DNA of 64,000 nt, from positions 773,326 through 837,325 of the forward strand of contig OZ245840.1 of NCBI GenBank assembly GCA_965228775.1. The letters run 5' to 3'. The stretch's first letter is position 1; every line of letters starts with the position of its first letter. Positions 16,050 through 61,260 of the stretch are shown here, piece by piece. The notes under the pieces are model-generated. The model was not told the origin of the DNA, made no database searches, and was given only the letters and a program-made list of their open reading frames with translations. The translations under genes and the position numbers were made by a program. Source of the DNA: Alphaproteobacteria bacterium. GTDB lineage: Bacteria; Pseudomonadota; Alphaproteobacteria; JANQMY01.

Positions 16050-16816
16050 TCCGTAAAAGATCCTCGCACTCAAATAGTCAAAGGGGTGCATCAGGCACAC
16101 CAATAGCGGCAACGTTTCCGGCATTCGAAAACGAACACAAACAAGCGCAAACCTGCTTACCGTGATACGCAATAGAGCGGCGATGCGCTCCGTACAAAGA
16201 TTATCAATCGAGGAAGTTTTGTGTGACGGCCCAATGAGCAAGACAGCTCAAAAATATCACACGATAGAAAATCCCCCCACTGCACGAAGCGCACAATCGG
16301 CGTGTCCTTCGCGCGGCAATTCACACACACCTGTTTAGCGTGTGTCAAGTTAAAGTTTCCCGAAAATCGTTCACATTCTGCGCGTGTATAAATTTTCTTA
16401 TTCAACACAGCAACATAGCGGAAAAAATAGTTATTCTGCTTACTGATTATTTTCATAAATCCGATTTCACAAAAACTTTGCAATTTCGGATTGTGAACTC
16501 AAAACGAGATTTTTCTGTTGACTCACTCATGCGTTGTGAGCAGCATTGCCGCCGAGAGTAACTTTGGGGGGACAGCTGTTTGCTTCCGGAATGGGAGCAA
16601 CGCTATCGACAGGGGTTCATCCAACTATTCGTGTTCATGCGTTCTTTGAACTCTCTCAACAGTGACACATAAGCAATTCTCAGGGGTAAATCTCGGGAGT
16701 AAATCTCGAGCGCAAATCTCGAAGATGAGTCCTGGCCGTGATGACGACAGTCATGCACGCGCGCATATATGTGCGGCGCGCGGCCGGGGAAGTTTTATTT
16801 AACGTGGAGGCCGTCG

Positions 16817-19800
16817 ATGTCCGCGAACGGTGGTGGTGTGTTTGGTTTTGGTGCGTTGACCTTAAAGAATCTTTGTCGGATGGGTACGGTTGGAACCGTT
16901 GCTCTGGCGGCCGCAACGGCCAATCTATTGTTGGACGACTATCCTGCGGCCGCGCAAGTCGTTGTTGAGGTTGATGGCACCCCGCCTCCACCGCAATCGT
17001 TTATTGAAGACACACTTCCAGCCATGCGGCTGCGCTCTATGCCGCTTATATCGCCTACAGATGCGTGGACATACTACCAAGCAAACGGAGGCAATACATC
17101 GCCGGCTGACCCGACACCAAACTATAGAATTGGCAGCTATGCGGCGAACGTTCTGGCAGCCCCATCCCTAATCCAGGAAAACATTCATGACAGTGTCGAG
17201 CTAACCCCCCTATTTGGTCTCCAGAAAGGCGCGGTGGGAGCGATTACGAATGGTACCGGCACAACGTTTGACATGGCGCACTTGGCCGTCAGCTTATTGC
17301 GGGTAAGCAGTGTTCCGGAGAGACCGATAACAGCCAACTATAAGTTTGGGACCGTGACGCTCAATGCGGAACAATTCGGCAAATGGTTTGGTGTTTTCGA
17401 TAACCTTGATGAAGCGAATCAAACATTCACGGTTTCGGCCACAGCCGCCTGCAAAATCCTCGCCGATGGTGGATTTCCAGCCCAAATTAATGGCAACAGC
17501 CCATCAGATTGCAATATCAGCGGTAATCTCAGCACGGTTACCTTCTCTCACGTTTGGGTTAGCGGAACCATTGATGGCGCCCCATTCGAGTTCGACCCAT
17601 CTTATAAGCAACACCGTTTGCATGCCGGTATCCCAAACTTAGCGGGCGCCTTAGGTCACTCGAGTGCCAAAACAACGGCATTGATGAACCTTATAAGCTG
17701 CTCCGCAAGCAACTGCACAAACTTCAATGCCAATGCCGTTAAGCCGGAGATTCAAACTCTCGCCGATAATCTGCTCACCTACATCAAAAACAACGATGAG
17801 AGTCTGCGTTTAGAAGGTTTGCTGGGCGGCAAAACGATTGAACATCTCACGAATGCAGATTTGTCGCTCCCAACCGGCCCGACCTATCAAGCAACGGCCA
17901 CCTGGACTCAGCATATTCCCAACGTCTTCAGAACAACGGTTGTGATTGAAGACAGCGCGACAGTATATCAAAAGAGAGCCACTCAATCCGCGCCGCCGAC
18001 AAACGGCTTTATCATCACAACGGTGACTTTTCCGCACGAGCTGAGATCAAACGTCTTTAACTTTTCAAAGACATTCTATGCCGATGAGATCAACGGCGAG
18101 CGCATTTGGATTGATCCCAAAAAAGTTTTCATTCTCCAAGACAACACGGTAACTCCTAACCGTTTCTATCCGGTGGCTCAGCATAAGCTCCGGATCGATA
18201 CGGATATCTTCGAAATGAATCCATTGGACGGTGGTTTTTTCCTCAATCCGTATGCGCACTACAAATATGATATTGGTGCGATTGCCGAAGAACTCGGTGT
18301 TCCAGACGGGCAAAATTACAAAGGCCAGTTTCCGGTCCGCCTGACGTCGGTTCCGTTTAAAATCACGGTAAATCATCCCTATGCAGCAAATAACGGCACG
18401 GGCATGGACCGTGTCTATAAGCGCAAAGTCGATATTACGCATCCCGCCGTTCTTGTGGTTGGCCTTGGCGATACCACAGACCGTTGGGTCGAAGAAATCG
18501 CCCGCTACGCGTCTTTCCCGATATCGGCACGTACGGATATTCAGAATCAGAACAACGACAACTGGGCCGGATTCGAGCCCTATTCCACGGAAGCCTCACA
18601 TGTAACCGGGGCCACCTGGCTGTCAGGTTTTTCAAAACTCGCAAAAATTCAAGAAGCCATCTCAAAATCAACGATACAGCATCACCACACAATCGGGTTT
18701 GTGATGCGCGACACCCAAAGCACCACAGTATCCGGGAACACTGTCGCTGGGTCGTTTGCGGAAACAATATCTCTAGATACAGCCGTAAGCGTTAATACAC
18801 AGATAGACGCATCAAACCTGCGCCTGCCAACATTTCGCGTGCTTGCAAGTGGGGGCGCCGCGCTGGAAGGACTGGCCATTAGTGAGGTTTATGACTTCGC
18901 ACAACCGTCAACGGTTGGTGGCTACGTGGCCGATTTGGGCGCGTCGAACAAAACTTTCCAAAACTACACCGCATCAGGCTCGGTGGTTGCGGCCCGCACA
19001 TCTGCAATGGATGGTCAAAGCCCGGCGTTTTCCCTCGAAGAAAAAGACTACGTCAACCGCTACTACACCGGCGGTTTTGATGTCTTCATGGCCCTAAACC
19101 AAACGGGTGGGTCAGCCAACGCCCCGCAGCTTGGTTTTGGAACCGCTTCACCCAACAATTTCCTTCACAAGTTCCGAACCCTTATTGCAACCAAGACAGA
19201 CGGAACCGAGATCGCTCATGCTCTCATTGACCGTTGGAACATTTTCAAAGGTGGCGCGGGCATACCGGAAGTCACTCATGATGGGTTTTCAAACCTTGGC
19301 CTCAACTATTCAGGTGCCCGCGCAGCCTCGGGAGCTGCTCTGACGGGTTTTGACGCAATCAGCGGAACACTTACGTACTCGCCGCCGGCCTATATTTCGG
19401 TTGGCAATGGCAGTTATCCTTACACCCTTAGTTTCCGGCAACATTTTAACTCCCACGACCTGAACAACTGGACGCACAATCTGGACAGCAAGGTTACCGT
19501 GGGCACAAATGTGTCGGTGTCGCTTGGGCGCAACCGCGCGCTTGATGCCGTCTGGGCCATTGCAGCCAGCTTCGCTGCCCTTGATGTTTACAGCGACGAT
19601 GCCATCGACCATATGCTGGTCGGCGCCGTGGTGATGGACCAATGGGCGCGCGCCTCCGTTCATAATGTCGCCACGGTGAAACGCGGCACGGACGTGATAC
19701 AGTTTTCCCGTGCCAGCGATGGCGCATTCATGGCCCCTCTTGGGCGCACGGAGTCGTTAACAATGGTCGGCACGGGGCCTGCCCGTTTCGCGCAAGATCT

Positions 19801-22800
19801 TTCGGGACAATCCTACGCCCACAATGTTTTCGACTACCGCAATGCGGAATTCGATCTGACAACCACCGACGGACAGACTTATCAATTTAGACATGCACCA
19901 TTGGTCGGCGGTTCCGCCAGCAATGTGCGCACGGCCTCTATTCCGTTGGCGGATCATCTGTTTGCCAACGGCATGACTGTTGCCTACGATAACGAATATA
20001 CGCCCTACCAAAACGATTTACCCACCGGCGGCACCACCTCTCTCACCCGCGTCTCCAATTCATTGGGGCATTCACTTGAATTTGCTTACAACCGAAACGA
20101 CTCCTCTTCCGGCGCCTATGGGTCCGGAGCGCTGGCTGGTGTTATTCGCGGTGTGCGCGATGCCAATGGCCGGGAAGCCTTTCTTCACTACGACTACAAC
20201 GCAAACTACGACAACAAGCCACACCTGGCCTTTTTCCCAACAGGTGTCACATTGCCGGATGGCGAAAGATATAACTATTTCTTTCAATCTCATGACCGAA
20301 GCTTACCACCGTCAACGAATGGGCGTCTGACTCCGACCGCAACCCAACTTGTTCGTGAATATTGGAAACCCAGGCTCTTTGCGATTACCACGCCGAGCGC
20401 GCCAACGTTTCTTTTTTTGGATTTCACATATGACGGCTTCGGTAAGATCCGAATGGTTAAAGATGCCTACGGAAACCCTTCCGGCTTCTATCGGGCGCCC
20501 GGACGCAGCCAAGTGCTTAACTCGGAAGGGGAAACCACTGCCCAATACTTCGACAAAGATGGCAACGTATTCGGCGCATTCGATTCGCTCGGAAACCTCA
20601 CGACGGCTGAATATGACGGGTTCAACCGTCTGACGAAGGTGACCCGTCCCGAAGGCGACGAAACCCATTACGAATACGATGGCGGCGCCACGGCATCCGC
20701 CTCCGTCAATCACAACCTGACAAAAGTAACACGCAAAGCCAAACCCGGTACCGGCGACAGCGACCTTGTCGCCACCTATGAATACACGGATACCAACTGG
20801 CCCAATGCCGTCACCGCATCGGTAAACCCAAGAGGAACGCGCAGCGAAGTCACCTACGACGCTACGTCGGGACTTCCCACCAGCACGAAAGCGGCTGTCA
20901 GCCTGCCGGAAGAGGTGACAACCCAAACCACCTACATCAATTTAGGCCGTGTCGATAAACAAATTGTCGACCCCACCGGCCTTAATGAAATTACGCAGTT
21001 TACGTATTACCCGGTTTCCGGCGCGTCCAATACATTCCACACCAATGGCGAACTACAAACGGTCACCGTTGACCCGACCGGATTGGCTCTTGGAACGTCT
21101 TACGAATACGACGATGTGGGCAACACCACCAAAGTGACCGACCCCAACACCAACTTTGTCACCACCACCTATGACGCCATGCGGCGGCCATTGCAGGTAG
21201 ACGCACCGCTCAATGCCGTCACCAAGAACATATATGACGTGGATGGCCGTCTGATCAGAACCGAACAGGCCACGGACGATTCACTCAACCCTTGGGCCAT
21301 CACCAACTTTACCTATGATGCACTCAACCGTCTGCGGCAGGTGGCCGATCCCACCGGGGCCGTTACACAGACCGATTATGACAAAGTAGGCCGGCCCACA
21401 GTGGTCACCGACGCCCTTCTGCGCAAAGTCAAGAACGTATACGACGCCGGTGGTCAGCTTATCAAAGTGATCGCCGCCTATCAGGGCACCACGGATGATT
21501 GCGTAGACGGCACCACATTGCAGCAATGCTATCAGCGCAACACCTATTCACCGAACGGCCGCTTGCTCAGCGTTCAGGACGCGAACGATAACATCACCAC
21601 CTATGCCTATGACGGTCATGACCGGCTATTCACATCCACCTTCCCGGACACGTCGTTTGAGCAGTTCACTTACGACGCCAACGGCAATGTTATTGAGCGG
21701 CGCACCCGTGCGGGCGAAACCATCGATCTTACTTACGATGCGCTGGACCGGGTGGCGGCCCGCGAGGTGCCCCAGCCGGGCACGCCCACACCGATTACGT
21801 ATACCTCGGCCTACGACAAGGCGGGGCGCATCGCCTCGCTCATGGGCGATGGCAAGACGCTTACCTTCTCTTACGACAAAGCCGGGCGCCTCACCGCCAA
21901 GCTGCACGGTCTGGGCGGCGGCGGAGGCACCACCAGCATCGGCTATGCCTATGATGCCGCCAGCAACGTCACCCAGCTCACCTATCCCGATGGCTGGTTT
22001 GCGACCCACGAATACGATGCGCTCAACCGGCTCGACCGCATTCTGGAAAACGGCACGCGGGTGCTGGCGGATTATGCCTATGACAAACAATCCCGGCGCA
22101 CCTCCGTTGCCTATGGCAATGGCGCAAACTCCGCTTATACCTTCACCGCACGGGGAGATCTGACGGACCTTACCCTGAACTTCGCCGTTCAGCAGGCGTC
22201 GTTCACCCATGCCTATGACGGGGTGGGACAGCTCACCGGGCGCACTCTGTCCGATCCGGCCTTTGCTCCGAAAGCCCTTCAAGCCGGTGCCACCAATTAC
22301 ACCGCCAACACGCTTAATCAGTATGCGTCTGTTGGCGGGTCCGCCTATACCTATGATCAGAACGGCAACCTCACCGGCACGCCCATCGGCAGTTTCGCCT
22401 ATGACGCGGAGAATGTGCTGCGCAGCGGCACGGTGAACGGCCAGGCCTTCTCCTACACCACCTGGCCCGACGGCAACCGCGCCTCCAAGACCGTGGGCAG
22501 CCTGGACACGGTGTTCTATCTCAATGGCAATCAGGTGATCGCTGACTACGACGGCGGCGGCACCCTCCTGCGCCGTTATGTGCGCGGGCCCAGCGTGGAC
22601 GAAGCCTTCCTGATGATCGACTACACAGGCGCCTCCCCGCAAGAAACCTGGGCCCACCAGGACCGGCTGGGCTCCACCATCGCCGTCAGCGACGATACCG
22701 GCGCTGTACAGGAAAAGATCACCTATGCCTCCTTCGGGGAGACGCAAGCGCAGACCGGCTTCCCGTTCAAGTTCACCGGCCAGCGTTTCGATCCGGAGAC

Positions 22801-23491
22801 GGAGCTTTACCACTACAAAGCCCGATACTACTCCCCCACCCTCGGCAGGTTCCTACAAACCGATCCAATCGGCTATGGATTGGACACCAACCTTTATACG
22901 TATGCACGCAACAACCCACACAGCTATACAGATCCAAGTGGAGAAATCCTGGATACAATACTTGATGCGATTTTTATTGTTTACGACGTTGCTGTGCTGG
23001 CCGTCGATGAAATATTCAATGGAGGAGCAAATAGAACTGAAAACCTGATCGCATTGGGAGCCGATGTTGCCGGCGCGGCGACGCCATTTGTAACAGGCGC
23101 CGGTTTGGGGGTTCGTGCAGCAAACAACGTGGGAGATGTCGTGAAACAGGTGCCCGGGGATAGGGCGCTTGACGCATCTAGCTCAGTCAATCAAGTATTG
23201 TTGCGCAATCAACTTAGTGCAGAGCAAATCGCCAAAGGCCATGCTTTCGACAAGCATGTTGTAACTCGCGGGGAGTATGTTGGTCTTGGGATACGAACCA
23301 GAGCCCAGTTTCAAAATCATGTTGAAAGCGTTATAAACAATCCATCCGCCTCCAGACAGCTGGCAAACGGCAGGGAGGCTTTTTGGGACGACGCGACAGG
23401 CACCGTTGTTATTCGTGATCCTAGACACCTAGATGGCGGGACAGCATTCAGACCCGATCTTGGACGTGAGTACTTCATGCAACTAAAGTAG
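16817..23491 (+). CDS. Rhs/YD-repeat polymorphic toxin with variable C-terminal toxin domain
   Basis: ~2224 aa from ATG 16817 (GGAGG 7 nt upstream). The ORF-track frame opens at 16769. Many YD repeats (YDALNRL, YDVDGRL, YDAGGQL, YDGHDRL, TYDANGNVIERR, YAYDAASNVTQLTYPDGW...). Canonical RHS repeat-associated core (...DRLGSTIAVSDDTGAVQEKITYASFGE...FTGQRFDPETELYHYKARYYSPTLGRFLQTDPIGYGLDTNLYTYARNNPHSYTDPSGE) ending in the DPxG autoproteolysis-type motif. It is followed by a ~190-aa divergent C-terminal domain. Confidence 0.9.
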   Translation: MSANGGGVFGFGALTLKNLCRMGTVGTVALAAATANLLLDDYPAAAQVVVEVDGTPPPPQSFIEDTLPAMRLRSMPLISPTDAWTYYQANGGNTSPADPTPNYRIGSYAANVLAAPSLIQENIHDSVELTPLFGLQKGAVGAITNGTGTTFDMAHLAVSLLRVSSVPERPITANYKFGTVTLNAEQFGKWFGVFDNLDEANQTFTVSATAACKILADGGFPAQINGNSPSDCNISGNLSTVTFSHVWVSGTIDGAPFEFDPSYKQHRLHAGIPNLAGALGHSSAKTTALMNLISCSASNCTNFNANAVKPEIQTLADNLLTYIKNNDESLRLEGLLGGKTIEHLTNADLSLPTGPTYQATATWTQHIPNVFRTTVVIEDSATVYQKRATQSAPPTNGFIITTVTFPHELRSNVFNFSKTFYADEINGERIWIDPKKVFILQDNTVTPNRFYPVAQHKLRIDTDIFEMNPLDGGFFLNPYAHYKYDIGAIAEELGVPDGQNYKGQFPVRLTSVPFKITVNHPYAANNGTGMDRVYKRKVDITHPAVLVVGLGDTTDRWVEEIARYASFPISARTDIQNQNNDNWAGFEPYSTEASHVTGATWLSGFSKLAKIQEAISKSTIQHHHTIGFVMRDTQSTTVSGNTVAGSFAETISLDTAVSVNTQIDASNLRLPTFRVLASGGAALEGLAISEVYDFAQPSTVGGYVADLGASNKTFQNYTASGSVVAARTSAMDGQSPAFSLEEKDYVNRYYTGGFDVFMALNQTGGSANAPQLGFGTASPNNFLHKFRTLIATKTDGTEIAHALIDRWNIFKGGAGIPEVTHDGFSNLGLNYSGARAASGAALTGFDAISGTLTYSPPAYISVGNGSYPYTLSFRQHFNSHDLNNWTHNLDSKVTVGTNVSVSLGRNRALDAVWAIAASFAALDVYSDDAIDHMLVGAVVMDQWARASVHNVATVKRGTDVIQFSRASDGAFMAPLGRTESLTMVGTGPARFAQDLSGQSYAHNVFDYRNAEFDLTTTDGQTYQFRHAPLVGGSASNVRTASIPLADHLFANGMTVAYDNEYTPYQNDLPTGGTTSLTRVSNSLGHSLEFAYNRNDSSSGAYGSGALAGVIRGVRDANGREAFLHYDYNANYDNKPHLAFFPTGVTLPDGERYNYFFQSHDRSLPPSTNGRLTPTATQLVREYWKPRLFAITTPSAPTFLFLDFTYDGFGKIRMVKDAYGNPSGFYRAPGRSQVLNSEGETTAQYFDKDGNVFGAFDSLGNLTTAEYDGFNRLTKVTRPEGDETHYEYDGGATASASVNHNLTKVTRKAKPGTGDSDLVATYEYTDTNWPNAVTASVNPRGTRSEVTYDATSGLPTSTKAAVSLPEEVTTQTTYINLGRVDKQIVDPTGLNEITQFTYYPVSGASNTFHTNGELQTVTVDPTGLALGTSYEYDDVGNTTKVTDPNTNFVTTTYDAMRRPLQVDAPLNAVTKNIYDVDGRLIRTEQATDDSLNPWAITNFTYDALNRLRQVADPTGAVTQTDYDKVGRPTVVTDALLRKVKNVYDAGGQLIKVIAAYQGTTDDCVDGTTLQQCYQRNTYSPNGRLLSVQDANDNITTYAYDGHDRLFTSTFPDTSFEQFTYDANGNVIERRTRAGETIDLTYDALDRVAAREVPQPGTPTPITYTSAYDKAGRIASLMGDGKTLTFSYDKAGRLTAKLHGLGGGGGTTSIGYAYDAASNVTQLTYPDGWFATHEYDALNRLDRILENGTRVLADYAYDKQSRRTSVAYGNGANSAYTFTARGDLTDLTLNFAVQQASFTHAYDGVGQLTGRTLSDPAFAPKALQAGATNYTANTLNQYASVGGSAYTYDQNGNLTGTPIGSFAYDAENVLRSGTVNGQAFSYTTWPDGNRASKTVGSLDTVFYLNGNQVIADYDGGGTLLRRYVRGPSVDEAFLMIDYTGASPQETWAHQDRLGSTIAVSDDTGAVQEKITYASFGETQAQTGFPFKFTGQRFDPETELYHYKARYYSPTLGRFLQTDPIGYGLDTNLYTYARNNPHSYTDPSGEILDTILDAIFIVYDVAVLAVDEIFNGGANRTENLIALGADVAGAATPFVTGAGLGVRAANNVGDVVKQVPGDRALDASSSVNQVLLRNQLSAEQIAKGHAFDKHVVTRGEYVGLGIRTRAQFQNHVESVINNPSASRQLANGREAFWDDATGTVVIRDPRHLDGGTAFRPDLGREYFMQLK
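21670..22867 (+). repeat. ~1.2-kb direct repeat copy A (inside main rhs, YD/RHS-core region)
   Basis: Near-identical at nucleotide level to 24576-25771. Encoded peptides are identical apart from a few substitutions (e.g. DALDRVAAREV vs DPLDRVATRVV). Confidence 0.85.
22915..23491 (+). other. Rhs C-terminal toxin (CT) region: hydrophobic/Gly-rich pre-toxin segment plus unclassified toxin domain
   Basis: Downstream of DPSGE: ILDTILDAIFIVYDVAVLAV (hydrophobic), Gly/Ala-rich TPFVTGAGLGV (PT-TG-like), then a basic His-rich domain with AKGHAFDKHV ... GTVVIRDPRHLDGGTAFRP. No recognisable known toxin family by eye. Confidence 0.5.
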
Positions 23492-23500
23492 AAGATAAAG

Positions 23501-23827
23501 ATGGCTGTAGTCTCTGATAAAATTCTTCAAATAATTAACCGCTCAATTCAAACTATTACTACCACAGAGCTAATCGAAGATTGGGAGTTCGCCATTGTGC
23601 TCGGAATTGAACGAAGTGTTCTTTCTGAGATGAGGAAAATCAGCAATCCCCTAGATTCGAGCGATCTTGACACAAGCATCAATGTGCTTCTCAATCTCGT
23701 CGGCTACCCGCATGGCAAGAAAGCAATCGTTGAAGAAAGCGTCGGTTTTTCTACTAGCGAGTTAAAAGCTGTGTTGGATGAACTCATCAAGCTCAGAGAA
23801 GAGTCCGGCGATAATGGCAACTCTTAA
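23501..23827 (+). CDS. putative cognate immunity protein of the Rhs CT toxin
   Basis: 108-aa acidic ORF starting 10 nt after the rhs stop, in an AT-rich tract. Position immediately 3' of a polymorphic toxin CT is the canonical immunity-gene position. No family recognised. Confidence 0.5.
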   Translation: MAVVSDKILQIINRSIQTITTTELIEDWEFAIVLGIERSVLSEMRKISNPLDSSDLDTSINVLLNLVGYPHGKKAIVEESVGFSTSELKAVLDELIKLREESGDNGNS

Positions 23828-23870
23828 AATGGCCGATCGCCCCTCTGCGAACACTTAACAGGAACTAGAA

Positions 23871-24152
23871 ATGAACGACACTTCAACTCAATGGCACAGA
23901 TTTTCCGCTATTACTTGTGCGCTATCAGCAATCGGGGTTTTGTTTCTAGCGTCGGCGACATTGGCAACAGCTGATCCTGAAAGTTCTGAAACACCGCCAC
24001 AACAAACTGAAACAATCCCAACAGCACCCGTTCAGATCGATGCAGATCAAAACATGAGTATCGAAGACCAAGCTTCACCTGATGTCGATAATCGATCCGG
24101 TCAAACATTACAGAGACGGCCTGTCAGCCAAGAACAATCTCAGCAAAATTAG
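23871..24152 (+). CDS. hypothetical small secreted low-complexity protein
   Basis: 93 aa. N-terminal signal-like LSAIGVLFLASATLATA, then a Pro/Gln/Ser/Glu/Asp-rich tail. Weak coding support. Confidence 0.25.
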   Translation: MNDTSTQWHRFSAITCALSAIGVLFLASATLATADPESSETPPQQTETIPTAPVQIDADQNMSIEDQASPDVDNRSGQTLQRRPVSQEQSQQN

Positions 24153-24469
24153 ATCGCATTAGCTTATTGAGGGGGCATCAATCGAGCAGAATCAATTTTC
24201 TACTCCTCGCTCGAAAAGAACCGGCAAAGCTGCTACAATCTCCTCCGAGGGAGGCACCATATACTGAGCGCCTCAAAATGAGACAGCGTAAGAATACGCG
24301 TTCTTTGATTATCCAAAGGCCCCCGAAAATTGACCGGCGGGCCTTTTTTGTTAGGCGGATGAGAGGGTCTCACGCCAAAAGTTGGATCAACCCCATGCGC
24401 CCATCCAAGCGTGATCAGGTTAAGTGGGTACCGGTTAACCGTCCGATCACGCGTCCCACAAAAAGTCAT

Positions 24470-24506
24470 GGGCATGATCAATTCTTCAAGAAGAATGATC
24501 ATGCCC
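24470..24506. repeat. inverted repeat GGGCATGATCA-N15-TGATCATGCCC (near-perfect 18-bp stem)
   Basis: GGGCATGATCAATTCTTCAAGAAGAATGATCATGCCC. The same 11-bp arms recur at 61261-61295. Confidence 0.7.
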
Positions 24507-24575
24507 TTGGTCAAGCCTTTTTGTGCCCAAAAACGGCCACAGGATTGGCATTCCCCAAACCTTCTTCTGTTCGCT

Positions 24576-25771
24576 TTACGACGCCAACGGCAATGTTATT
24601 GAGCGGCGCACCCGTGCGGGCGAGACCATCGATCTCACTTACGACCCGCTGGACCGGGTGGCGACCCGCGTGGTTCCCCAGCCGGGCACGCCAACACCGA
24701 TTACGTATACCTCGGCCTATGACAAGGCGGGGCGCATCGCCTCGCTCATGGGCGATGGCAAGACCCTCACCTTCTCTTACGACAAAGCCGGGCGCCTCAC
24801 TGCCAAGCTGCACGATCTGGGTGGCGGCGGGGGCACCACCAGCATCGGCTATGCCTATGATGCCGCGAGCAATGTCACCCAGCTCACCTATCCCGATGGC
24901 TGGTTTGCGACCCACGAATACGATGCGCTCAACCGCCTCGACCGCATTCTGGAAAACGGCACGCGAGTGCTGGCGGATTATGCCTATGACAAACAATCCC
25001 GGCGCACCTCCGTTGCCTATGGCAATGGCGCAAACTCCGCCTATACCTTCACCGCAAGGGGAGACTTGACGGACCTCACCCTGAACTTCGCCGTTCAGCA
25101 GGCGTCGTTCACCCATGCCTATGACGGGGTGGGACAGTTGACCGGGCGCACTCTGTCCGATCCGGCCTTTGCCCCGAAAGCCCTTCAAGCCGGTGCCACC
25201 AATTACACCGCCAACACGCTTAATCAGTATGCGTCCGTTGGCGGGTCCGCCTATACCTACGACCAGAACGGCAACCTCACCGGCACGCCCATCGGCAGTT
25301 TCGCCTATGACGCGGAGAATGTGCTGCGCAGCGGCACGGTGAACGGCCAGGCCTTCTCCTACACCACCTGGCCCGACGGCAATCGCGCCTCCAAGACCGT
25401 GGGCAGCCTGGATACGGTGTTCTATCTCAATGGCAATCAGGTGATCGCTGACTACGACGGCAGCGGCACCCTGCTGCGCCGCTATGTGCGCGGGCCCGGC
25501 GTGGACGAAGCGTTCCTGATGATCGACTACACAGGCGCCTCCCCGCAAGAAACCTGGGCCCACCAGGACCGGCTGGGCTCCACCATCGCCGTCAGCGACG
25601 ACACCGGTGCGGTACAGGAAAAGATTACCTATGCCTCCTTCGGGGAGACGCAAGCGCAGACCGGCTTCCCGTTCAAGTTTACCGGCCAGCGCTTCGATCC
25701 GGAGACGGAGCTTTACCACTACAAAGCCCGCTATTATTCCCCCACCCTCGGCAGATTCCTTCAAACCGATC
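24576..25771 (+). repeat. ~1.2-kb direct repeat copy B (orphan rhs fragment)
   Basis: See copy A (21670-22867). Divergence begins at ACCGATCC | CAATCGG versus CGTAGGG. Confidence 0.85.
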
Positions 25772-25959
25772 CCGTAGGGTATGCGGATCAGATGAATTTA
25801 TACGGGTACGGTGGTAATGATCCGATAAATCTGAAAATCCGGCAGGCGAATAACGGTATCCATTCATGGACAAGTCACCCCAAAGAGACTACCTGTTGTG
25901 ATACGAGGCGTAACTCCTTATGTCATTCTTTGACATCTGGGAAAAGTAATCGGTATTGA
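24576..25959 (+). pseudogene. orphan rhs C-terminal module (promoter-less, no start codon, truncated CT)
   Basis: The reading frame begins abruptly inside YD-repeat sequence identical to main rhs 21670 onward. It retains the RHS core up to RFLQTDP, then diverges (VGYADQMNLYGYGGNDPINL...) into a ~45-aa Cys-rich tail before the stop. No immunity ORF follows. The 3' end overlaps the convergent gspC-like gene. Confidence 0.7.
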
Positions 25960-26453
25960 TCTCCTTCGGTTACAAAGTGGACGGCCTCTTTGTCGATTGA
26001 GGCCACCTTCCATCCCGCCACGGCATCTCCAACCGATAACATCTCCCCTTCGCTTTGGGGTGTTTTCTTAAAGATCGCCTTCTGATCATTCCCAACGACG
26101 ATCGTTCCCACCAAGATCATTCGAGATAGAATGGTCTTGGCATCGGGAGGCGCCGGTGAAGCGGCCTTATTCGCTACTCTATCACTTTTATCTTTAACCG
26201 GCCGTTCCATATAGGTTCGGCTGGCGTGAAAGATAGGCTTCTCCTTGACGCTTTTATATGCCTTCAGTTCGGGCGTCTCGAAAGCCCATTGGGTCGTCGC
26301 GAGTGCAGACTCGTTTCGGGCAGAAGACCCGTCTGTGACCTCCAAATCCACCTCTATCGATCCAATGGTCAGCATATGCCAAGCAGCAATCGCGCCAACC
26401 GTAATTATCGACCCGATCAAAAATTGCGTAGCGGCGGGTTTAGCCATTCGCAC
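25923..26453 (-). CDS. T2SS GspC/PilP-like component (short, no PDZ domain)
   Basis: 176 aa. N-terminal TM (FLIGSIITVGAIAAW). The C-terminal EGEMLSVGDAVAGWKVASIDKEAVHFVTEGDQYRL resembles the GspC/PilP homology region that contacts the secretin. Last gene of the gsp operon. Confidence 0.4.
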   Translation of the reverse strand: MRMAKPAATQFLIGSIITVGAIAAWHMLTIGSIEVDLEVTDGSSARNESALATTQWAFETPELKAYKSVKEKPIFHASRTYMERPVKDKSDRVANKAASPAPPDAKTILSRMILVGTIVVGNDQKAIFKKTPQSEGEMLSVGDAVAGWKVASIDKEAVHFVTEGDQYRLLFPDVKE

Positions 26454-27027
26454 TCGCCTCTACATTTTGAACAAATCCGGAAACACCAAGCGTAACGTTT
26501 AGGACCGGGTTCCGGTCGCGGTTTGCCTCTCCTGCTCTTTGCTGTTTTACAGCCAAGCTATCCACGATGAGATATGGAACGGTCTTCTCAATATCGTAGA
26601 GAACCTTTTCCAACACTTGCATGTCGCCGTTAAAGGTAATGACGACAGGCACGCGCAAATTCTTGCCCGCCGGCGCCGAGGGGCGCCCTTGCGAACTGGT
26701 TACCTGACCGCCATGGTCCAAAATCCATTTCTTTAGGTCAGCTTGAATGGACGCCACAGCCACTGTGGGCGTCGCCGCTGATCGCAGAAAGGTTTGGTCA
26801 AAATCGGAGGCGTTTAAATCAGAAAGGCGCGCTGACAGATCGCCCGTGCTGCTGGCAATACGTTTGTATTGCGCCAGTTGGTGTTTTGCGTCGGCAATCG
26901 CATCTGTGTGGTCCATATATTCAGTCAACACTGGCCTCACAATAGAAACCGCAGCCACCCAAACCACAAGCGTCAAGATCATGAGAGCAAGCGTCTTTTG
27001 CTGCCAGCCGGAAAGCATGTTCATCAT
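26440..27027 (-). CDS. gspM: type II secretion system protein M
   Basis: 195 aa. Single N-terminal TM (LALMILTLVVWVAAVSIV) plus periplasmic domain. Position after the gspL-like gene and size typical of GspM. Confidence 0.55.
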   Translation of the reverse strand: MMNMLSGWQQKTLALMILTLVVWVAAVSIVRPVLTEYMDHTDAIADAKHQLAQYKRIASSTGDLSARLSDLNASDFDQTFLRSAATPTVAVASIQADLKKWILDHGGQVTSSQGRPSAPAGKNLRVPVVITFNGDMQVLEKVLYDIEKTVPYLIVDSLAVKQQRAGEANRDRNPVLNVTLGVSGFVQNVEASANG

Positions 27028-27032
27028 GTTCG

Positions 27033-28094
27033 TTAATCCCGCTTAAGGTTGACCATCAAGTCATATCGCTCACCTTTTTGCCGAGGGTCCTGCCGCACAG
27101 GTGATTGGAACCTGGCATTCGCAAACAATGGGGACTTCTCCAATAACTCCGGCAATATGGCGGCATTTTCGGCATACCCCATCAATCGTACCGAAGTCCC
27201 CTGCAGCCTCATTTCGGAAACCCAAGCCGTCTTGGGTATGATGCGAGAGAGTTCCGCCATTATAGCAAGCGGTGACGGTGCGATCTTCTGCTGGATCAGA
27301 GTGAGTCTGCTTTGCTCTAAGACATTCAGCTCCCGCTCAATGTCTGCAGCATGCTGAGCCTCGGCTTTCGCCCCCACAATCGCCGACTGCCACACTGAAA
27401 TGTCCTGCTGCCATCGATCTTGTACGACGCCCCAGGTAAACAACGAGGCCGAAACAAGTAATGCAAAGAGCAGAGCATTCAGCCGAAAAGTCGTTAGTCC
27501 GCTGGCTTTTCCGTCATGGGGTAGAAAATTATACCGGATATCTGATGTGCTTTTCTCCAACAGTCCGATGCCGGACGGCTTTACCCCCCAACTTGCAACC
27601 TTGTTCAGTACATCTTCAATGGCGTTTCGGCGAACGATTGCCAAATTGACCGCGACTTTCTCACTCACGGGTTTCCGTTCCAGCACCATATGATCGAAGA
27701 AAATCTGATCCGCCTTAACCGGTGACAACCGATCAATCTGCAATGCGATTACGCTTCTTAGGTTGGCTGACGCCGCGGTCGGAAAATCAAGTTGTCGGAC
27801 AAATGCTTGATCTGCTGAGATCGCGACTTGAAATGATTTCGCATTCTTGAGTGCCGCAAGCTGCCTTGGACGCTTAGCCCCCGCACGCACGCGCTCCAAA
27901 ACCGAAACGGTACCTCGCCTCCTTTTATAGATCGTGATCTCATCCCCGTGGAAATCAACAAACACACCGGACGAGCGACCGCCCGTTCTGGCGATGGGGG
28001 GCACCATCGACAGCAGCTCATTAGTCCACCATTTCCAGGCAGTCTCCAACAGGTCAGCAGACCTCGACAAGGTTCCAGTCTCAACGGGCATCAT
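27033..28094 (-). CDS. gspL: type II secretion system protein L
   Basis: 353 aa. Cytoplasmic actin-like N-domain, central TM (LLFALLVSASLFTWGVV), periplasmic C-domain. Sits between gspJ and gspM. Confidence 0.6.
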   Translation of the reverse strand: MMPVETGTLSRSADLLETAWKWWTNELLSMVPPIARTGGRSSGVFVDFHGDEITIYKRRRGTVSVLERVRAGAKRPRQLAALKNAKSFQVAISADQAFVRQLDFPTAASANLRSVIALQIDRLSPVKADQIFFDHMVLERKPVSEKVAVNLAIVRRNAIEDVLNKVASWGVKPSGIGLLEKSTSDIRYNFLPHDGKASGLTTFRLNALLFALLVSASLFTWGVVQDRWQQDISVWQSAIVGAKAEAQHAADIERELNVLEQSRLTLIQQKIAPSPLAIMAELSRIIPKTAWVSEMRLQGTSVRLMGYAENAAILPELLEKSPLFANARFQSPVRQDPRQKGERYDLMVNLKRD

Positions 28095-28766
28095 TTACCT
28101 CCGCCGACAGTTCCGGCTGACCGGATCGTATTGGCATTGTGAATCCATATCGATACGCGGATGAACTACAAGGGGGACCCAATCACGTTCATCAAATTCT
28201 CTTTTCAGATTAACCCTCACCAACTCCGGAAGACCGTTCTTCGCGTTCCATCGGTTGCCCCATCGGACTCCGTCAAAATACTCCAATTCGAACTTCTCAA
28301 CCTGGTCAAGCAATACTTTGCTTTCCGTCGCCGCATCGTAGCGCGGGTCGCGCCGACCATTGCGATCGACAATCCAGTCAAGCATCAACGTCCTGGCGTC
28401 TGTTCCGGACTGCTCATATCGCAAACGAAAACGGTGCAACCCTTTCAGCTGAAACTGCCGTGGCGCATCAGCCGAGAAAATCAGTTCCTGCGGCTCACCA
28501 ATAAACGGCGGCGCCCCGTCGGATTTTGATGTCTCGTGATAATAAGGATAGCTCCGGGCCACCAGATCGTACACAAGCTGCCGCACGACGCGAATTTCCT
28601 CGACCGACTCTGAAGTCGATTGAGATCTCTCCCATACCCTGGTGCCAAACTGCATCCCCCCCAAGATCATAGAGGCCATGAGAGCCACCAGTGTCATGGC
28701 CACCAAAAGCTCCATGAGGGTGAAGCCCGCCTCCTCGGGTTCTATCGTTGTCCATTCAATCTTCAC
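28095..28766 (-). CDS. gspJ: type II secretion minor pseudopilin J
   Basis: 223 aa. Prepilin leader plus GFTLMELLVAMTLVALMASM (class III signal with E+5). Size fits GspJ. Confidence 0.6.
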   Translation of the reverse strand: MKIEWTTIEPEEAGFTLMELLVAMTLVALMASMILGGMQFGTRVWERSQSTSESVEEIRVVRQLVYDLVARSYPYYHETSKSDGAPPFIGEPQELIFSADAPRQFQLKGLHRFRLRYEQSGTDARTLMLDWIVDRNGRRDPRYDAATESKVLLDQVEKFELEYFDGVRWGNRWNAKNGLPELVRVNLKREFDERDWVPLVVHPRIDMDSQCQYDPVSRNCRRR

Positions 28767-29185
28767 ATGGGGTCCCCAGAAAACTTCACCGTACTCATTT
28801 CAAATAATAACCGGCCGGAGCTTTCTTCATGTACAGACACATGGGCGCGGTAAAGACGAGTCTCTCGGTTTTTGCTCTCCTCCCCTTGTGGAATTATCTG
28901 CATCAGCTCAGGATCAAATGGGTCTATGACAACCCTCCAACCAAAACCATACGGTTCATAAACGCCAACGACTTCCTGACGCCTGAGCTCGATAGACGGC
29001 CCTACTTCTTCGAGCTTAGACTGGGCAAAATAGCCTGCGTCCAACAAAAGTTCGGAATGGGATATTTTTTTTTGCCCCAATGAAAAGCTCTGCAGGAGGA
29101 CGGTCACCGACATAGCGAGGATGGCAAACGCAACAACCACCTCCGTCAGCGAAAAGCCCGATTGCCCGTGCCTCTTATCGACCAT
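28763..29185 (-). CDS. gspI: type II secretion minor pseudopilin I
   Basis: ORF-track frame extends to 29236. Likely start MVDKRHGQSGFSLTEVVVAFAILAMSV (prepilin motif G-F-S-L-T-E), ~140 aa. Confidence 0.55.
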   Translation of the reverse strand: MVDKRHGQSGFSLTEVVVAFAILAMSVTVLLQSFSLGQKKISHSELLLDAGYFAQSKLEEVGPSIELRRQEVVGVYEPYGFGWRVVIDPFDPELMQIIPQGEESKNRETRLYRAHVSVHEESSGRLLFEMSTVKFSGDPM

Positions 29186-29639
29186 ATTCCATGACCGCTC
29201 GTCCCGTGAGCCAATCAACCAAGATCGTTTTCTCATTCCCGTTCGATTTCAGAACTATCCTGCCGTTGTAGGCACCACCATTTTCAATGAACCTTAGAGC
29301 CTTGTAGTTTGGTTGCCCCACATGACGTTCCGTATCCATTGAGAGGTTGATCCCATCCGGTACGGAATTCCAAGATTTGCCAAAATCAATACTGTAGCGT
29401 TGATCGATTTCGTCCAACCAAAACTCTTTCACCACTCCCTCCCTATGAGCTGTAAACCTCAAGTGTTTGATGTCGCCCAACAGATCTTGCGTTGCCTTGT
29501 TCAGTTGAACACCTGGAACGAATTGATTGTATGCAACTGGAATCAAGGATATCGCCAGAATCAAAATGGCCATGGAAACAAGCAGTTCCACGAGCGTGAA
29601 ACCCGCCTGAGCATCAATTCCAGCTCGTGATATCGGCAT
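29175..29639 (-). CDS. gspH: type II secretion minor pseudopilin H
   Basis: Frame extends to 29744, overlapping gspG. Probable start MPISRAGIDAQAGFTLVELLVSMAILILA (prepilin motif). Confidence 0.5.
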   Translation of the reverse strand: MPISRAGIDAQAGFTLVELLVSMAILILAISLIPVAYNQFVPGVQLNKATQDLLGDIKHLRFTAHREGVVKEFWLDEIDQRYSIDFGKSWNSVPDGINLSMDTERHVGQPNYKALRFIENGGAYNGRIVLKSNGNEKTILVDWLTGRAVMEYGR

Positions 29640-30051
29640 TCTCCCCCTCACCGCCTTCTTTCTTGTCAGGTCCCAGTGAAAAGAGATCGAACCTTCCATA
29701 CTTACCCGGATGTGAATATCGATAAGGTGTCCCCCATGGATCAATCAGGCTGGCTTCCTTACGGACATATGGGCCGTTCCATGTTTCTGCGCTGGTCGGT
29801 TTGACGACAAGGGCTGCAAGCCCTTCCTCCGTTGACGGAAGACTGCCCGTATCCAAATAATAGAGATCCAATGCGTTCACGAGGTTTTCGATTTGGATCG
29901 TCGCCGCGTCCGATTTGGCCTTGCCCAGATATCCAACGACCTGGGGCGCCACGAAACCAGCAATCAACACCAGGATCACCATCACAGCAAGAAGCTCGAC
30001 TAAGGTGTAACCGTCTTGTCCTTTCCATCTATGACTCTTCTGCTTACTCAT
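29614..30051 (-). CDS. gspG: type II secretion major pseudopilin G
   Basis: 145 aa. GYTLVELLAVMVILVLIAG prepilin N-terminus and the GspG-specific C-terminal block DPWGTPYRYSHPGKYGRFDLFSLGPDKKEGGEGENADITSWN. Confidence 0.9.
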   Translation of the reverse strand: MSKQKSHRWKGQDGYTLVELLAVMVILVLIAGFVAPQVVGYLGKAKSDAATIQIENLVNALDLYYLDTGSLPSTEEGLAALVVKPTSAETWNGPYVRKEASLIDPWGTPYRYSHPGKYGRFDLFSLGPDKKEGGEGENADITSWN

Positions 30052-30077
30052 TGCCCCCTCGTTAATTGCTCACGTAA

Positions 30078-31295
30078 TCACAATGCTAATTGGTTGATGC
30101 TGAGTATTCCGACCAACACCGCAACAATCAAACCACCGACAACAATTCCCATCCCAATAGTCAAAACCGGTACAAGCAGCGTCAACAGCCGCTCCACCGT
30201 ATTTTCCACTTCACGCTCGTAGATATCAGCAACCTGCAGAAGCATTTCGTCTAGCCGTCCTGTTTCCTCCCCCACGGCGGTCATTTGGATAAGAAGATCC
30301 GGAAAGACGTTTGTTTTTCGCAGTGCATTGAGGAACCGGCTTCCTTCCCTCACCTGCTCCCGCATATCGAGACATGCATTTCGGACGACCAAGTTGCCCG
30401 CCGTTTCACTCGACCTTTGCAATGCCACGTGGAGCGGTAGACCGTTCTGCAGAAGCATGCCAACAGTCCTTGCGAATGCTGCACTTTCGGTTTTCAAGGC
30501 CAGCCCAAAGAAGGCTTTCTTACCTAGGATCGCTCGATCGACAAGTTTGCGGGTAGGCGGATGACTGAAGCTCCTAATTGCGACGACTGCAAACACCGCC
30601 AAAGACAGCAAAACGAGCCAGCCCCATTTCTCGAAAAACGTTCCGACACCCATGACCAACTGGGTCACCAACGGCAGCTGCGATCCGGCATCGTCAAATA
30701 CTTCCTTAAACTGAGGAAGAACGTATCCGACGACCAGAACCATCGTTACGCTGATCATAATCAAGAGGAATATAGGATAAATCAGAGCAGACGTAATCCG
30801 TGTACGAATTGCTTCAGTTTTCTTAAGATGCAACGATAGCCGCTCAAGCACTTCACTCAATGTTCCGCTCGCTTCGGCTGCACTTACCAGACTGGTGTAG
30901 TAGCGGGGAAAATCTGAGGAAGTCTTTTCTAATGCCCGAGCAAACGATGTGCCGTTTCGCAAGAGGTCTAGCATACGCTCGATTGACGTTCGCACCCCCT
31001 TACGGTCCGAATTGCTGCTAATGATCCGCAACGCCCGCTCCAGTGTAAGGCCGCTTCCAATCAAATTTGAGAGATCTCGTGTAATAGCGGTCAGCTCCGT
31101 AGTCGAGATATCACTTTGCCGGAACAAACCACCCAGCCCGGCAGGAGTACCGCCCTCAGGCATAAGATCTATTTGCAATGGGGTGTGACCTTGCCCCAAC
31201 AGCCAGTCCACAACAGCCGCTTCCGTGGCGGCATTTGTGTTGCCCGAAATGGTTTCCCCAGAAGACGTGAGAGCAGAGTATGAAAATCTCGCCAT
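30078..31295 (-). CDS. gspF: type II secretion inner-membrane platform protein F
   Basis: 405 aa. Two GspF-type repeats, each with a cytoplasmic domain followed by TM helices. Conserved LAL/GLPL motifs. Confidence 0.85.
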   Translation of the reverse strand: MARFSYSALTSSGETISGNTNAATEAAVVDWLLGQGHTPLQIDLMPEGGTPAGLGGLFRQSDISTTELTAITRDLSNLIGSGLTLERALRIISSNSDRKGVRTSIERMLDLLRNGTSFARALEKTSSDFPRYYTSLVSAAEASGTLSEVLERLSLHLKKTEAIRTRITSALIYPIFLLIMISVTMVLVVGYVLPQFKEVFDDAGSQLPLVTQLVMGVGTFFEKWGWLVLLSLAVFAVVAIRSFSHPPTRKLVDRAILGKKAFFGLALKTESAAFARTVGMLLQNGLPLHVALQRSSETAGNLVVRNACLDMREQVREGSRFLNALRKTNVFPDLLIQMTAVGEETGRLDEMLLQVADIYEREVENTVERLLTLLVPVLTIGMGIVVGGLIVAVLVGILSINQLAL

Positions 31296-31296
31296 C

Positions 31297-36812: not shown

Positions 36813-36857
36813 TCACGATCCGCAGATCCACCTCTTCGCAGGACTAGAATACTGGAG

Positions 36858-38609: not shown

Positions 38610-38654
38610 TTTGTAATCAGGGGGTCGGGTGTTCAAGTCACCCAGCCGGCACCA
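38610..38654 (+). repeat. exact 45-nt direct repeat of tRNA-Thr 3' end (putative attR of island 1 / attL of island 2)
   Basis: TTTGTAATCAGGGGGTCGGGTGTTCAAGTCACCCAGCCGGCACCA is identical to 6965-7009. Confidence 0.8.
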
Positions 38655-38770
38655 CCCAATCTGGTATTCATTCTTGTCACTTGGTTTACGGGTTTGTACC
38701 GGGAGACCTAGAGCGCGATCAGGTTACCTTGAAAAATGATCAAGCGCAGCTCTTACATACGCGGTGGGAT

Positions 38771-61191: not shown

Positions 61192-61260
61192 ACTTCCCCG
61201 GCTCCATTCCACTTTTGTTGCCCTAACAAAATACGATCATCTTTGGCTCGTGTGCCCTAG

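Follow-up and report, generated by a model that had tools for sequence, protein, structure and literature searches.

Downstream of a full-length rhs gene in the window (the whole 64,000-nucleotide stretch of DNA analysed here), a second RHS core lies on the same strand with no toxin behind it, which raises the question of where this fragment came from and whether it still has a role. The initial annotation had described it as a promoter-less orphan rhs-CT module that was created by a 1.2-kb duplication and ends in a truncated toxin tail. A different account is favoured here. The segment 24576-25853 is in all probability a vestigial orphan or "dissociated tip", i.e. a former or alternative 3' end of the rhs gene that was displaced by a 2906-bp unit and is now toxin-less and most likely silent. 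The features concerned are listed in Table 1.

Table 1. Coordinates of the features of the rhs locus, numbered from the first letter of the window.
Feature	Position	Strand	Remarks
Full-length main rhs gene	16769..23491	+	2240 aa from first ATG; public calls start at 16817 (2224 aa)
Repeat copy A	21670..22877	+	Last 402 codons of the main-gene RHS shell/core, up to the first DPIGY motif
Second core-end motif DPSGE of main gene	22931..22945	+	Predicted C-terminal autocleavage site and CT start; from translation
Toxin domain of main Rhs	23135..23488	+	aa 2123-2240; GHAFDKH motif; predicted colicin-D-like (BECR-type) RNase fold
Candidate cognate immunity gene	23501..23827	+	108 aa; starts 10 nt after the rhs stop codon
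Small ORF, part of the 2906-bp unit	23871..24152	+	93 aa; hydrophobic N-terminus, low-complexity tail; from translation
Terminator-like hairpin, then TTTTTTGTT	24315..24349	+	Between cassette and orphan; -17.6 kcal/mol, 8/200 shuffles fold as well
Hairpin-rich dispersed intergenic repeat modules (REP-like)	24362..24513	.	Right end of the putatively inserted unit
Repeat copy B (orphan RHS core fragment)	24576..25783	+	Frame intact, 0 stops, 0 indels
Orphan core end	25784..25853	+	ADQMNLYGYGGNDPINLK, A4 run with the frameshift at 25834-25837; in the shifted frame, NPAGE is followed by TAA (25851-25853); three-frame translation
As-read 40-aa "Cys-rich tail" and stop	25837..25959	+	Tail codons at 25837-25956; out-of-frame read-through of non-coding DNA
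Convergent GspC-like gene	25923..26453	-	Last gene of the type II secretion cluster; bounds the orphan

The main Rhs protein begins with a region of ~1300 aa in which no domain is recognised; a YD-repeat shell and the RHS core follow, and the C-terminus is a toxin. Pfam RHS_repeat matches seven stretches of it, and NCBIfam YD_repeat_2x and positions 1-75 of the 76 of Rhs_assc_core are matched as well. Searched alone by sequence against Pfam and PDB, the C-terminal region (CT) gave no match, and the colicin-D-like lead was obtained only via a profile and a predicted structure. The toxin domain has 32 homologues; many bear the source name 'filamentous hemagglutinin', and PT-HINT is present in one. 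Their alignment contains conserved G-H-A-F-x-K-H, R, T, and P columns, with GHAFxKH invariant or nearly so across 30 homologues. The AF2 model of the domain (pLDDT 90) found its best PDB matches in the CdiA-CT of E. coli O32:H37 (8EY4, chain 8ey4_A) and the colicin D tRNase (1TFO, 5ZNM, 1V74), at a Foldseek probability of 0.95-1.0 and TM of 0.43-0.66, with E-values of only 3e-3 to 4e-2. In addition to this similarity of predicted fold, the GH..KH and T.F.P motifs align between the toxin profile and 8EY4, and a small immunity gene directly downstream is a further resemblance to the colicin D and CdiA-CT systems. The sequence similarity, in contrast, is marginal (E 0.04, 17-19% identity), and the domain has no Pfam family. 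The CT of the main gene is thus predicted to be a colicin-D-like RNase of the BECR fold. The 108-aa ORF behind it matches nothing in Pfam or NCBIfam; in an unrelated metagenomic locus (L079), a homologue with 24% identity and a pairwise E of 2e-14 is located directly 3' of a toxin-domain homologue. The main cassette reads as a genuine toxin-immunity pair, made up of a toxin of predicted activity and a candidate immunity gene. The following 93-aa ORF likewise has no family match in Pfam or NCBIfam.

The orphan shares with this gene a direct repeat whose existence and content had been correctly recognised from the start, its limits being slightly longer (21670-22877 and 24576-25783) than the 21670-22867 and 24576-25771 first given. 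In a local alignment the two copies pair without a gap over 1208 nt with 52 mismatches (95.7% identity), and their starts are 2906 nt apart on the same strand. The edges are sharp, as identity in 50-nt bins outside the repeat falls to 9-14/50 on the left and 8-18/50 on the right. The repeat holds the final 402 codons of the RHS shell, 395 of which encode the same amino acid in both copies, and YD repeats as well as the RHS-associated core domain TIGR03696 are recognised in each copy. The N-terminal 1634 codons of the main gene are missing from the orphan. Past 22877 and 25783 the sequences 3' of the two copies are unrelated, and in the orphan the first DPxGY motif (25768-25782) is where the DNA homology stops. 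The core has a GC content of 60-64%, against 44-52% in the CT and spacer. An assembly artefact in the form of a wrongly expanded or collapsed repeat, which had been named as the result that would overturn the initial annotation, has nothing in its favour except that repeats are generally risky in assemblies. It is extremely improbable, since 52 codon-structured differences, unique flanks on all four sides, and differing core ends set the copies apart. The source contig, moreover, has a length of 5.3 Mb.

The origin of the second copy can be read from the manner in which the two copies differ. Among the 50 differing codons, 43 are synonymous and 7 non-synonymous, and third codon positions hold 42 of the 52 differences. 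By the NG86 method dS is 0.162, dN is 0.0089, and omega is 0.055. A tandem duplication, in situ, of the 3'-terminal 1.2 kb of rhs, whose downstream copy then decayed as a promoter-less pseudogene with a truncated toxin tail, would fit the same strand, the distance of 2.9 kb, the 95.7% identity, and the inactivating lesions of the downstream copy. However, a silent copy is expected to show ~60% non-synonymous differences, whereas 8 of 52 were observed. Neutral simulations (n=5000) gave a mean of 36.6 non-synonymous changes and a minimum of 24, and under a model with a neutral orphan and a constrained main gene the probability of at most 8 non-synonymous differences in 52 is ~1e-11; the neutral share of the divergence is at most ~10-15%. 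Moreover, 1208 nt have been retained without stops or indels, the sequence after copy A is not repeated after copy B, and the core-end alleles beyond the repeat differ, that of the orphan resembling those of other taxa. Gene conversion was considered as a source of the synonymous bias and rejected, as the mismatches are evenly spread, the longest identical run of 119 nt is not unusual (P 0.21), and no conversion tract was found in the 1208-nt alignment. The claim of a 1.2-kb duplication has therefore been given up, and that origin is regarded as quite unlikely. The copies rather look like two alleles that diverged to a dS of 0.16 while both were functional genes. The low dN/dS, the rejection of the neutral model, and the orphan's own core-end allele together point to a displaced allele instead of a simple in-situ duplicate. 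Alternatively, such a low dN/dS may reflect continuing selection on the orphan core, whatever its cause.

The end of the orphan accounts for its presumed toxin tail. Beyond the repeat, 18 further codons up to 25836 form an orphan-specific core end, which is genuine but different from that of the main gene. The homologue consensus for this region is DP[IV]GYxDQMNLYAYVxNDPxNxxDPxG[LMK], and the two DPxG motifs are spaced by 18 residues in the orphan as in the main gene. The second motif of the orphan is out of frame. Adding one A to the A4 run restores a reading of ...NLKNPAGE*, in which Asn replaces the catalytic Asp, a residue defined, like the motif itself, in work in which C-terminal cleavage was abolished by changing D to N in the second DPLGL motif (PMC8636562). 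As read, the orphan ORF scores 75.8 bits against TIGR03696 (curated cut-off 32.5), covering profile positions 1-70 of 76 only, and 54 bits against YD_repeat_2x; it thus belongs to the RHS core-domain family and the YD-repeat shell above the curated cut-off. With the frame corrected, the match to TIGR03696 rises from positions 1-70 of 76 and 80.2 bits to positions 1-75 of 76 and 86.2 bits, which supports the correction. The frameshift in the homopolymer could be a sequencing error; the stop remains immediate after correction. What had been taken for a short Cys-rich tail of ~45 aa after the DPxG-type region does contain Cys, but it is 40 aa long, begins after the orphan's own core end, and is a product of the frameshift. 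A search for tail homologues elsewhere, which the first reading had called for, yielded chance matches without significant similarity in 78 related loci, and the apparent extension of one BLASTP pair into the tail was spurious, again by chance matches only.

Once corrected, the frame comes to a stop codon directly behind the core-end motif, and the description as an rhs-CT module with a truncated toxin tail is replaced by that of a frameshifted read-through. From the stop at 25853 to that of the convergent GspC-like gene at 25923 there are 69 nt, which leave no room for a toxin or an immunity gene. No ORF is possible in this interval, which bears out the lack of an immunity ORF noted at first. 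The as-read frame does run into the gspC-like gene, as had been noticed, overlapping its 3' end by 37 nt. Judged from its sequence, the orphan contains no toxin, and its tail is not one. As is usual for orphans, it follows a full-length rhs gene in the same orientation, and its partial core is almost the same as that of the gene before it. Two further features of an orphan module, namely an intact PxxxxDPxGL motif with a distinct C-terminal toxin domain and an immediately downstream immunity gene, are both lacking.

The possibility of expression was also considered. The frame is open from 24499. Contrary to the claim that it lacks a start codon, it contains a GTG in frame at 24523, from which public gene calls predict a 478-aa protein; the claim is right insofar as this GTG has no Shine-Dalgarno sequence and is placed inside the non-homologous spacer. 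A terminator-like hairpin precedes it, which also appears in the fold of the whole spacer and which a simple terminator scan missed because its loop exceeds 8 nt. Consensus scans for promoters and terminators gave the same counts as shuffled sequence, and the promoter scan was no better than chance in either direction. With the hairpin and the missing promoter and Shine-Dalgarno matches as its basis, the orphan is most likely transcriptionally silent and without function. A functional orphan, either as a stand-alone C-terminal shell piece translated from GTG 24523 or as an OFF switch by which recombination reversibly disarms the Rhs toxin, would agree with the intact 402-codon frame, the very low dN/dS, the publicly called protein, and identical runs of up to 119 nt, which are enough for RecA-mediated recombination. 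It is nevertheless very unlikely. Besides the poor start, the upstream hairpin, and a promoter signal not above chance, the core-end motif is frameshifted and its catalytic Asp replaced. Excision would also remove the immunity gene and should be counter-selected among armed siblings, and the synonymous bias is general in orphan arrays, so that it indicates no special function. The called 478-aa "RHS repeat-associated core domain protein" is hence better regarded as a pseudogene-like remnant, to be left out of tallies of toxins and of orphan toxin/immunity modules.

Comparable loci are found among relatives. Searched against 5.8 billion proteins, the orphan matched only the same genome's own proteins, the next match being 47% identical; in a scan of GTDB genomes the best match had 44% identity over full length. 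The nearest Rhs relatives are from marine Alphaproteobacteria of the Hyphomonadaceae and Maricaulaceae. Two same-strand core-end motifs 2-5 kb apart occur in 8 of 78 related loci, including those of Hyphomonas, Hyphomonadaceae, and Maricaulis. The DNA repeats in such loci are 0.3-1.0 kb long with 72-100% identity, and a synonymous bias is present there as well (e.g. 23 vs 6 and 56 vs 12).

The proposed displacement has precedents in better-known systems. The displacement model and degenerate fragments have been described in Serratia (PMC2935791). In Serratia marcescens Db11 (SMA1610 with SMA1612/1614/1616; Jackson et al. 2009, PMC2935791), same-strand partial cores likewise follow an intact rhs gene as nearly identical direct repeats, most fragments are without a usable start codon, two have frameshifts or premature stops, and GC-rich cores are joined to GC-poor tips as in the present locus. 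However, the Db11 fragments keep recognisable C-terminal tips, whereas the present one ends at the core-end motif without a tip or immunity gene, and the host there belongs to the Enterobacteria and here to an unsampled lineage. In Salmonella Typhimurium LT2 (STM0291/STM0292; Koskiniemi et al. 2014, PMC3967940), the gene behind the main one is an orphan that lacks signals for initiation and export. The main/orphan repeat there spans 522 bp at 95% identity, compared with 1208 bp at about the same identity here, and recombination between repeats is the expected rearrangement in both. The LT2 orphan, unlike this one, encodes an active toxin and its cognate immunity protein, so that recombination makes a new weapon. 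Orphan fragments of CdiA (2011, PMC3150448) are also degenerate pieces of polymorphic toxins without a demarcation motif and immunity gene, their scaffold being CdiA/TPS filaments in place of the Rhs shell. As a presumably silent fragment downstream of a full-length rhs gene, without an immunity gene and abutting a type II secretion (T2SS) operon, the present orphan fits the displaced "graveyard" type of rhs and cdi loci with which it had been compared. C-terminal displacement is an ordinary by-product of Rhs toxin-gene evolution and a known kind of feature. The locus adds a clean quantitative example outside the Enterobacteria, in which the cores of an rhs array differ like diverged functional alleles (omega ~0.05) and not like a duplicate with a decaying copy.

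According to the displacement favoured here, a 2906-bp unit would have entered the rhs core by homologous recombination and pushed the older 3' end downstream. In its present arrangement (21670-24575) the unit would comprise 1.2 kb of core, the colicin-D-like CT, the 108-aa immunity gene, the 93-aa ORF, and a spacer with the terminator-like hairpin and REP-like repeats. Such a geometry is expected from a single Campbell-type crossover of a circular core-tip-immunity unit, which is a published hypothesis and not a demonstrated pathway (Jackson et al. 2009, PMC2935791), or from an equivalent insertion. Everything past the core would have been lost from the orphan either after or before its displacement, leading to the lesions now seen, i.e. 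the frameshift, the Asn for the catalytic Asp in the second DPxG, the immediate stop, and the missing toxin and immunity gene. If so, some sister strains should possess a full-length rhs gene ending in ...DPVGYADQMNLYGYGGNDPINLK[D/N]PAGE, with another CT and immunity gene adjoining the gsp operon and without the 2906-bp unit.

The only foreseeable activity of the orphan would be that of a RecA substrate, and the 1.2-kb repeat does suit homologous recombination, as had been suggested. If the two copies recombined, the 2906-bp cassette would be excised, leaving a toxin-less, cleavage-defective Rhs in a cell without immunity. Of the two outcomes first envisaged, deletion of the cassette is thus possible, but a swap of the expressed CT is not, as the product is toxin-less and the immunity gene is lost. 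A main/orphan repeat is hence not always a reservoir of alternative toxins, and here recombination can only disarm the cell. It is a very improbable conjecture that the orphan core is kept as an OFF switch, in which RecA excision of a 2906-bp circle reversibly disarms Rhs and exports the cassette to relatives, combined with a delivery route other than T6SS. A hint of such a route comes from the 1300-aa N-terminus without a domain, the absence of PAAR from Rhs and of T6SS genes within 64 kb, and the adjoining T2SS.

Regarding the neighbourhood, the GspC-like gene adjoins T2SS genes M, L, J, I, H, G, F, and E. Its protein matches NCBIfam GspC_delta weakly (E 3.9e-6, below the family cut-off), and the sole match in a database search was the same genome's own protein. 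A functional Rhs-T2SS link was rejected, since the adjacency is not conserved in loci holding homologues of the N-terminal region. Integrase-mediated insertion of an island, prompted by partial tRNA-Thr repeats, was also discarded, as no integrase is present among the ORFs scanned. Searches of PLSDB plasmids by blastn with the cassette and with the orphan gave no match and thus no support there for an episomal source, and an Rfam scan of 23400-26500 at E<=1 returned nothing. The REP-like modules of the spacer recur in the window as partial copies at 666-708, 38705-38745, and 61253-61419, and the hairpin that they form at 24409-24452 has a folding energy of -21 kcal/mol (z -3.7).

The main rhs gene, whose C-terminal toxin is termed CT below, is followed by a displaced fragment of RHS core (the orphan). 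The two share a direct repeat (24576-25783 against 21670-22877) of 1208 nt, ungapped and with 52 mismatches (95.7% identity by local alignment), and the copies lie 2906 nt apart, start to start. Seed-and-extend search, local alignment and an identity profile in 50-nt bins agreed on this repeat, and the coordinates in the initial annotation were off by no more than about 10 nt. In the profile the left edge is abrupt, with identity falling straight to background (9-14 of 50), and at the right edge identity declines gradually over about 50 nt (30, then 18, then 8 of 50). The upstream copy (copy A) represents the final 402 codons of shell and core in the 2240-aa Rhs. For the downstream copy (copy B), the open frame begins at 24499 and includes a GTG at 24523, so the earlier statement that it has no start codon was too strong; public gene calls include it as a 478-aa protein (P0001) on the 5.31-Mb contig. 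For the main gene, these calls place the start at 16817 (2224 aa, P0121). Additionally, ORFs of 300-417 aa cross both copies antisense or out of frame (21626-22813, -; 24511-25764, -; 24167-25069, +). They arise because GC3 in the Rhs core is very high (0.72-0.84), and gene annotation should omit them.

Coordinates of features at the rhs locus and in its surroundings
Feature	Position (nt)	Strand	Remarks
tRNA-Thr(TGT) gene	6934-7009		
2891-aa ORF	7566-16241	-	divergent to rhs
Main rhs	16769-23491	+	2240 aa; Pfam RHS_repeat, NCBIfam YD_repeat_2x and Rhs_assc_core
N-terminal region of main Rhs	16769-20668	+	~1300 aa
Last 118 residues of main CT	23135-23488		toxin domain
Small ORF			93 aa; third element of the 2906-bp unit
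Hairpin	24315-24349		-17.6 kcal/mol, followed by T6GTT
Hairpin-rich modules	24362-24513		right end of cassette, beside orphan junction
Further module copies	666-708, 38705-38745, 61253-61419		intergenic
Convergent ORF	25923-26453	-	weak GspC match
T2SS cluster	25923-37598		complete, two divergent operons
T2SS operon 1		-	GspC-like, M, L, J, I, H, G, F, E
T2SS operon 2		+	secretin D, K, prepilin peptidase O

The differences between the copies are overwhelmingly silent. Of 402 codons 50 differ; the change is synonymous in 43 and non-synonymous in 7, and third positions account for 42 of the 52 mismatches (Nei-Gojobori dS 0.162, dN 0.0089, omega 0.055). When 52 substitutions were placed randomly with the observed transition bias (5000 trials), non-synonymous changes averaged 36.6 with a minimum of 24, against 8 observed, and stop codons averaged 1.3, against none. 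A silent copy beside a constrained main gene predicts about 60% non-synonymous changes, for which the probability of 8 or fewer among 52 is about 1e-11; the neutral share of the total divergence is at most roughly 10-15%. The plain 1.2-kb duplication initially proposed as the origin of the fragment is therefore rejected. Mismatches are spread evenly over the thirds of the repeat (19, 11 and 22), and the longest identical run, 119 nt, is not unusual (P 0.21), thus ruling out recent gene conversion as the cause of the pattern. The synonymous excess, together with the rejection of the neutral-copy model, argues that the copies are two alleles which diverged while functional and were joined recently relative to a dS of 0.16.

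Past the DNA repeat, both frames still encode the end of an Rhs core, though the alleles are not the same: DPIGY-GLDTNLYTYARNNPHSYT-DPSGE before the CT in the main gene, and DPVGY-ADQMNLYGYGGNDPINLK and then IRQANNGIHSW... in the orphan as read. Homologues from other taxa have DP[IV]GYxDQMNLYAYVxNDPxNxxDPxG[L/M/K] here, and the match to this consensus argues that the orphan is genuine core through NDPINLK, nearer to those homologues than the main gene's version. Exactly where the orphan core end breaks, ENPAGE and then TAA can be read in the frame displaced by two bases (equivalent to -1). If the A4 run at 25834-25837 is lengthened by one A, the frame becomes NDPINLKNPAGE-stop, with the TAA at 25851-25853. 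After this correction the DPxG-to-DPxG spacing is 18 residues, equal to that of the main gene, and the TIGR03696 match extends from 1-70/76 (80.2 bits) to 1-75/76 (86.2 bits). Moreover, the second motif of the orphan has Asn in place of the catalytic Asp; C-terminal autocleavage of Photorhabdus Rhs1 is lost when its second DPLGL motif carries D1338N (PMC8636562). Only 69 nt separate the TAA from the stop codon of the convergent ORF (25923-25925), leaving no space for a toxin or immunity gene. The 40-aa Cys-rich stretch that had been taken for a truncated toxin tail is a read-through of non-coding sequence; a search of 78 related loci gave nothing significant for it, and what looked like a BLASTP alignment reaching into it was spurious.

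The unit between the repeat starts (21670-24575) has five elements in its unique part, namely the CT, a 108-aa ORF, a 93-aa ORF, a hairpin and hairpin-rich modules. The toxin domain has no Pfam model. It has 32 metagenome homologues (P0123-P0154), mostly short fragments labelled 'filamentous hemagglutinin' at source, in which it is C-terminal, and including one with PT-HINT. Such a spread would be expected of a polymorphic-toxin domain common to several delivery scaffolds. Conserved columns include a G-H-A-F-x-K-H motif and several Arg, Thr and Pro. The AlphaFold model (pLDDT 90) is nearest to CdiA-CT of E. coli O32:H37 (8EY4) and the colicin D tRNase domain (1TFO, 5ZNM, 1V74), at probabilities of 0.95-1.0 but E-values of only 3e-3 to 4e-2, and a profile search also returned 8EY4 (E 0.04). 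From these matches we infer a predicted colicin-D-type RNase. The 108-aa ORF begins 10 nt past the rhs stop codon, and in an unrelated locus, L079, a toxin homologue is succeeded by a homologue of this ORF (24% identity, E 2e-14), which supports the ORF as the candidate cognate immunity gene. Toxin-domain homologues are often followed by an ORF of ~100 aa sharing a DWEF...GYPHG signature with the 108-aa ORF, and the pair looks like an uncurated polymorphic toxin/immunity family. The sole promoter-like site in the spacer lies upstream of the hairpin, with none between hairpin and orphan, in a scan whose counts were no better than chance. The dispersed modules (for example GCGTGATCAGGTTAAGTG...CCGGTTAACCGTCCGATCACGC and GGGCATGATCA...TGATCATGCCC) are short, hairpin-forming and REP- or MITE-like. 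Their copies elsewhere in the window suggest that the spacer is native to this lineage or a close relative.

The nearest Rhs homologues, from Oceanicaulis, Hyphomonas, Maricaulis and other marine Alphaproteobacteria, reach 37-47% identity over the orphan length, and the source lineage is thus essentially unsampled. Two same-strand core-end motifs 2-5 kb apart were found in 8 of the 78 related loci, with DNA repeats of 0.3-1.0 kb and 72-100% identity. Main and orphan cores there differ mostly synonymously (23 vs 6, 56 vs 12, 61 vs 28, 64 vs 23 and 42 vs 22). The downstream copy carries a distinct CT past DPxG in all but one, the exception being the second copy in locus L042, whose core end is disrupted. 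Degenerate rhs fragments with frameshifts or premature stops are known in Serratia (PMC2935791), and orphan fragments without demarcation motif or immunity gene in cdi loci (PMC3150448). The 'graveyard' of displaced tips first suggested for this locus is borne out, the orphan being a rather decayed case of a well-known feature type.

The layout is core(A)-tip-immunity-spacer-core(B)-old end. In the model of Jackson et al. for enterobacterial rhs, a unit of core fragment, tip and any intervening genes, probably circular, recombines with the chromosomal core, and the incumbent end is shunted downstream undeleted (PMC2935791). The arrangement seen here would result if a 2906-bp circle crossed over once, at any point in the 1208-bp homology. 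Both copies would in that case be mosaics of donor and recipient and would still differ over their full length by donor-recipient allelic divergence, as observed. The toxin-less old end may predate the insertion, which would have re-armed a disarmed gene, or may stem from later deletion up to the gsp operon. Reverse recombination is plausible because the copies share 14 identical runs of at least 30 nt. The toxin-immunity unit would be lost by excision, and the Rhs left behind would have a frameshifted, cleavage-dead core end. In Salmonella LT2, a functional orphan toxin is loaded when a 522-bp repeat of 95% identity recombines (PMC3967940), whereas here no new toxin is obtainable, and the CT swap once envisaged would produce a toxin-less Rhs. 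It is highly improbable that the orphan core acts as an excision-based OFF switch or a cassette donor in this Rhs, whose N-terminal region is unrecognised (no Pfam or NCBIfam domain, no PAAR) and which has no T6SS nearby (no such genes anywhere in the 64-kb window).

That N-terminal region gives weak sub-threshold matches to Transglut_core and Beta_helix only, and around residues 39-64 it has a hydrophobic stretch that may be of the Sec type. Its distant homologues (23-31% identity) occur in four of the compared loci (L002, L003, L006 and L012), where T2SS genes are not adjacent. The convergent GspC-like ORF is the last gene of the type II secretion cluster, and its 176-aa product has no homologue beyond its own genome's copy in a collection of 5.8 billion proteins. 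The 2891-aa ORF, with 25 Big_9/cadherin-like repeats, CshA-type repeats, a 288-nt DNA period (copies 60-73% identical) and one RHS repeat near its N-terminus, probably encodes a giant adhesin. The ORFs scanned included no integrase. Two direct partial copies of tRNA-Thr(TGT), each of the 3' 49 nt (anticodon arm to CCA), lie at 38606-38654 and 49124-49172, 31.6 kb and 42.2 kb downstream of the gene (98% and 84% identity), with flanks also similar to each other. These copies resemble att scars of tandem genomic islands. The rhs locus would then belong to one island along with the giant adhesin and the T2SS cluster, and 38.6-49.2 kb would make up the second.
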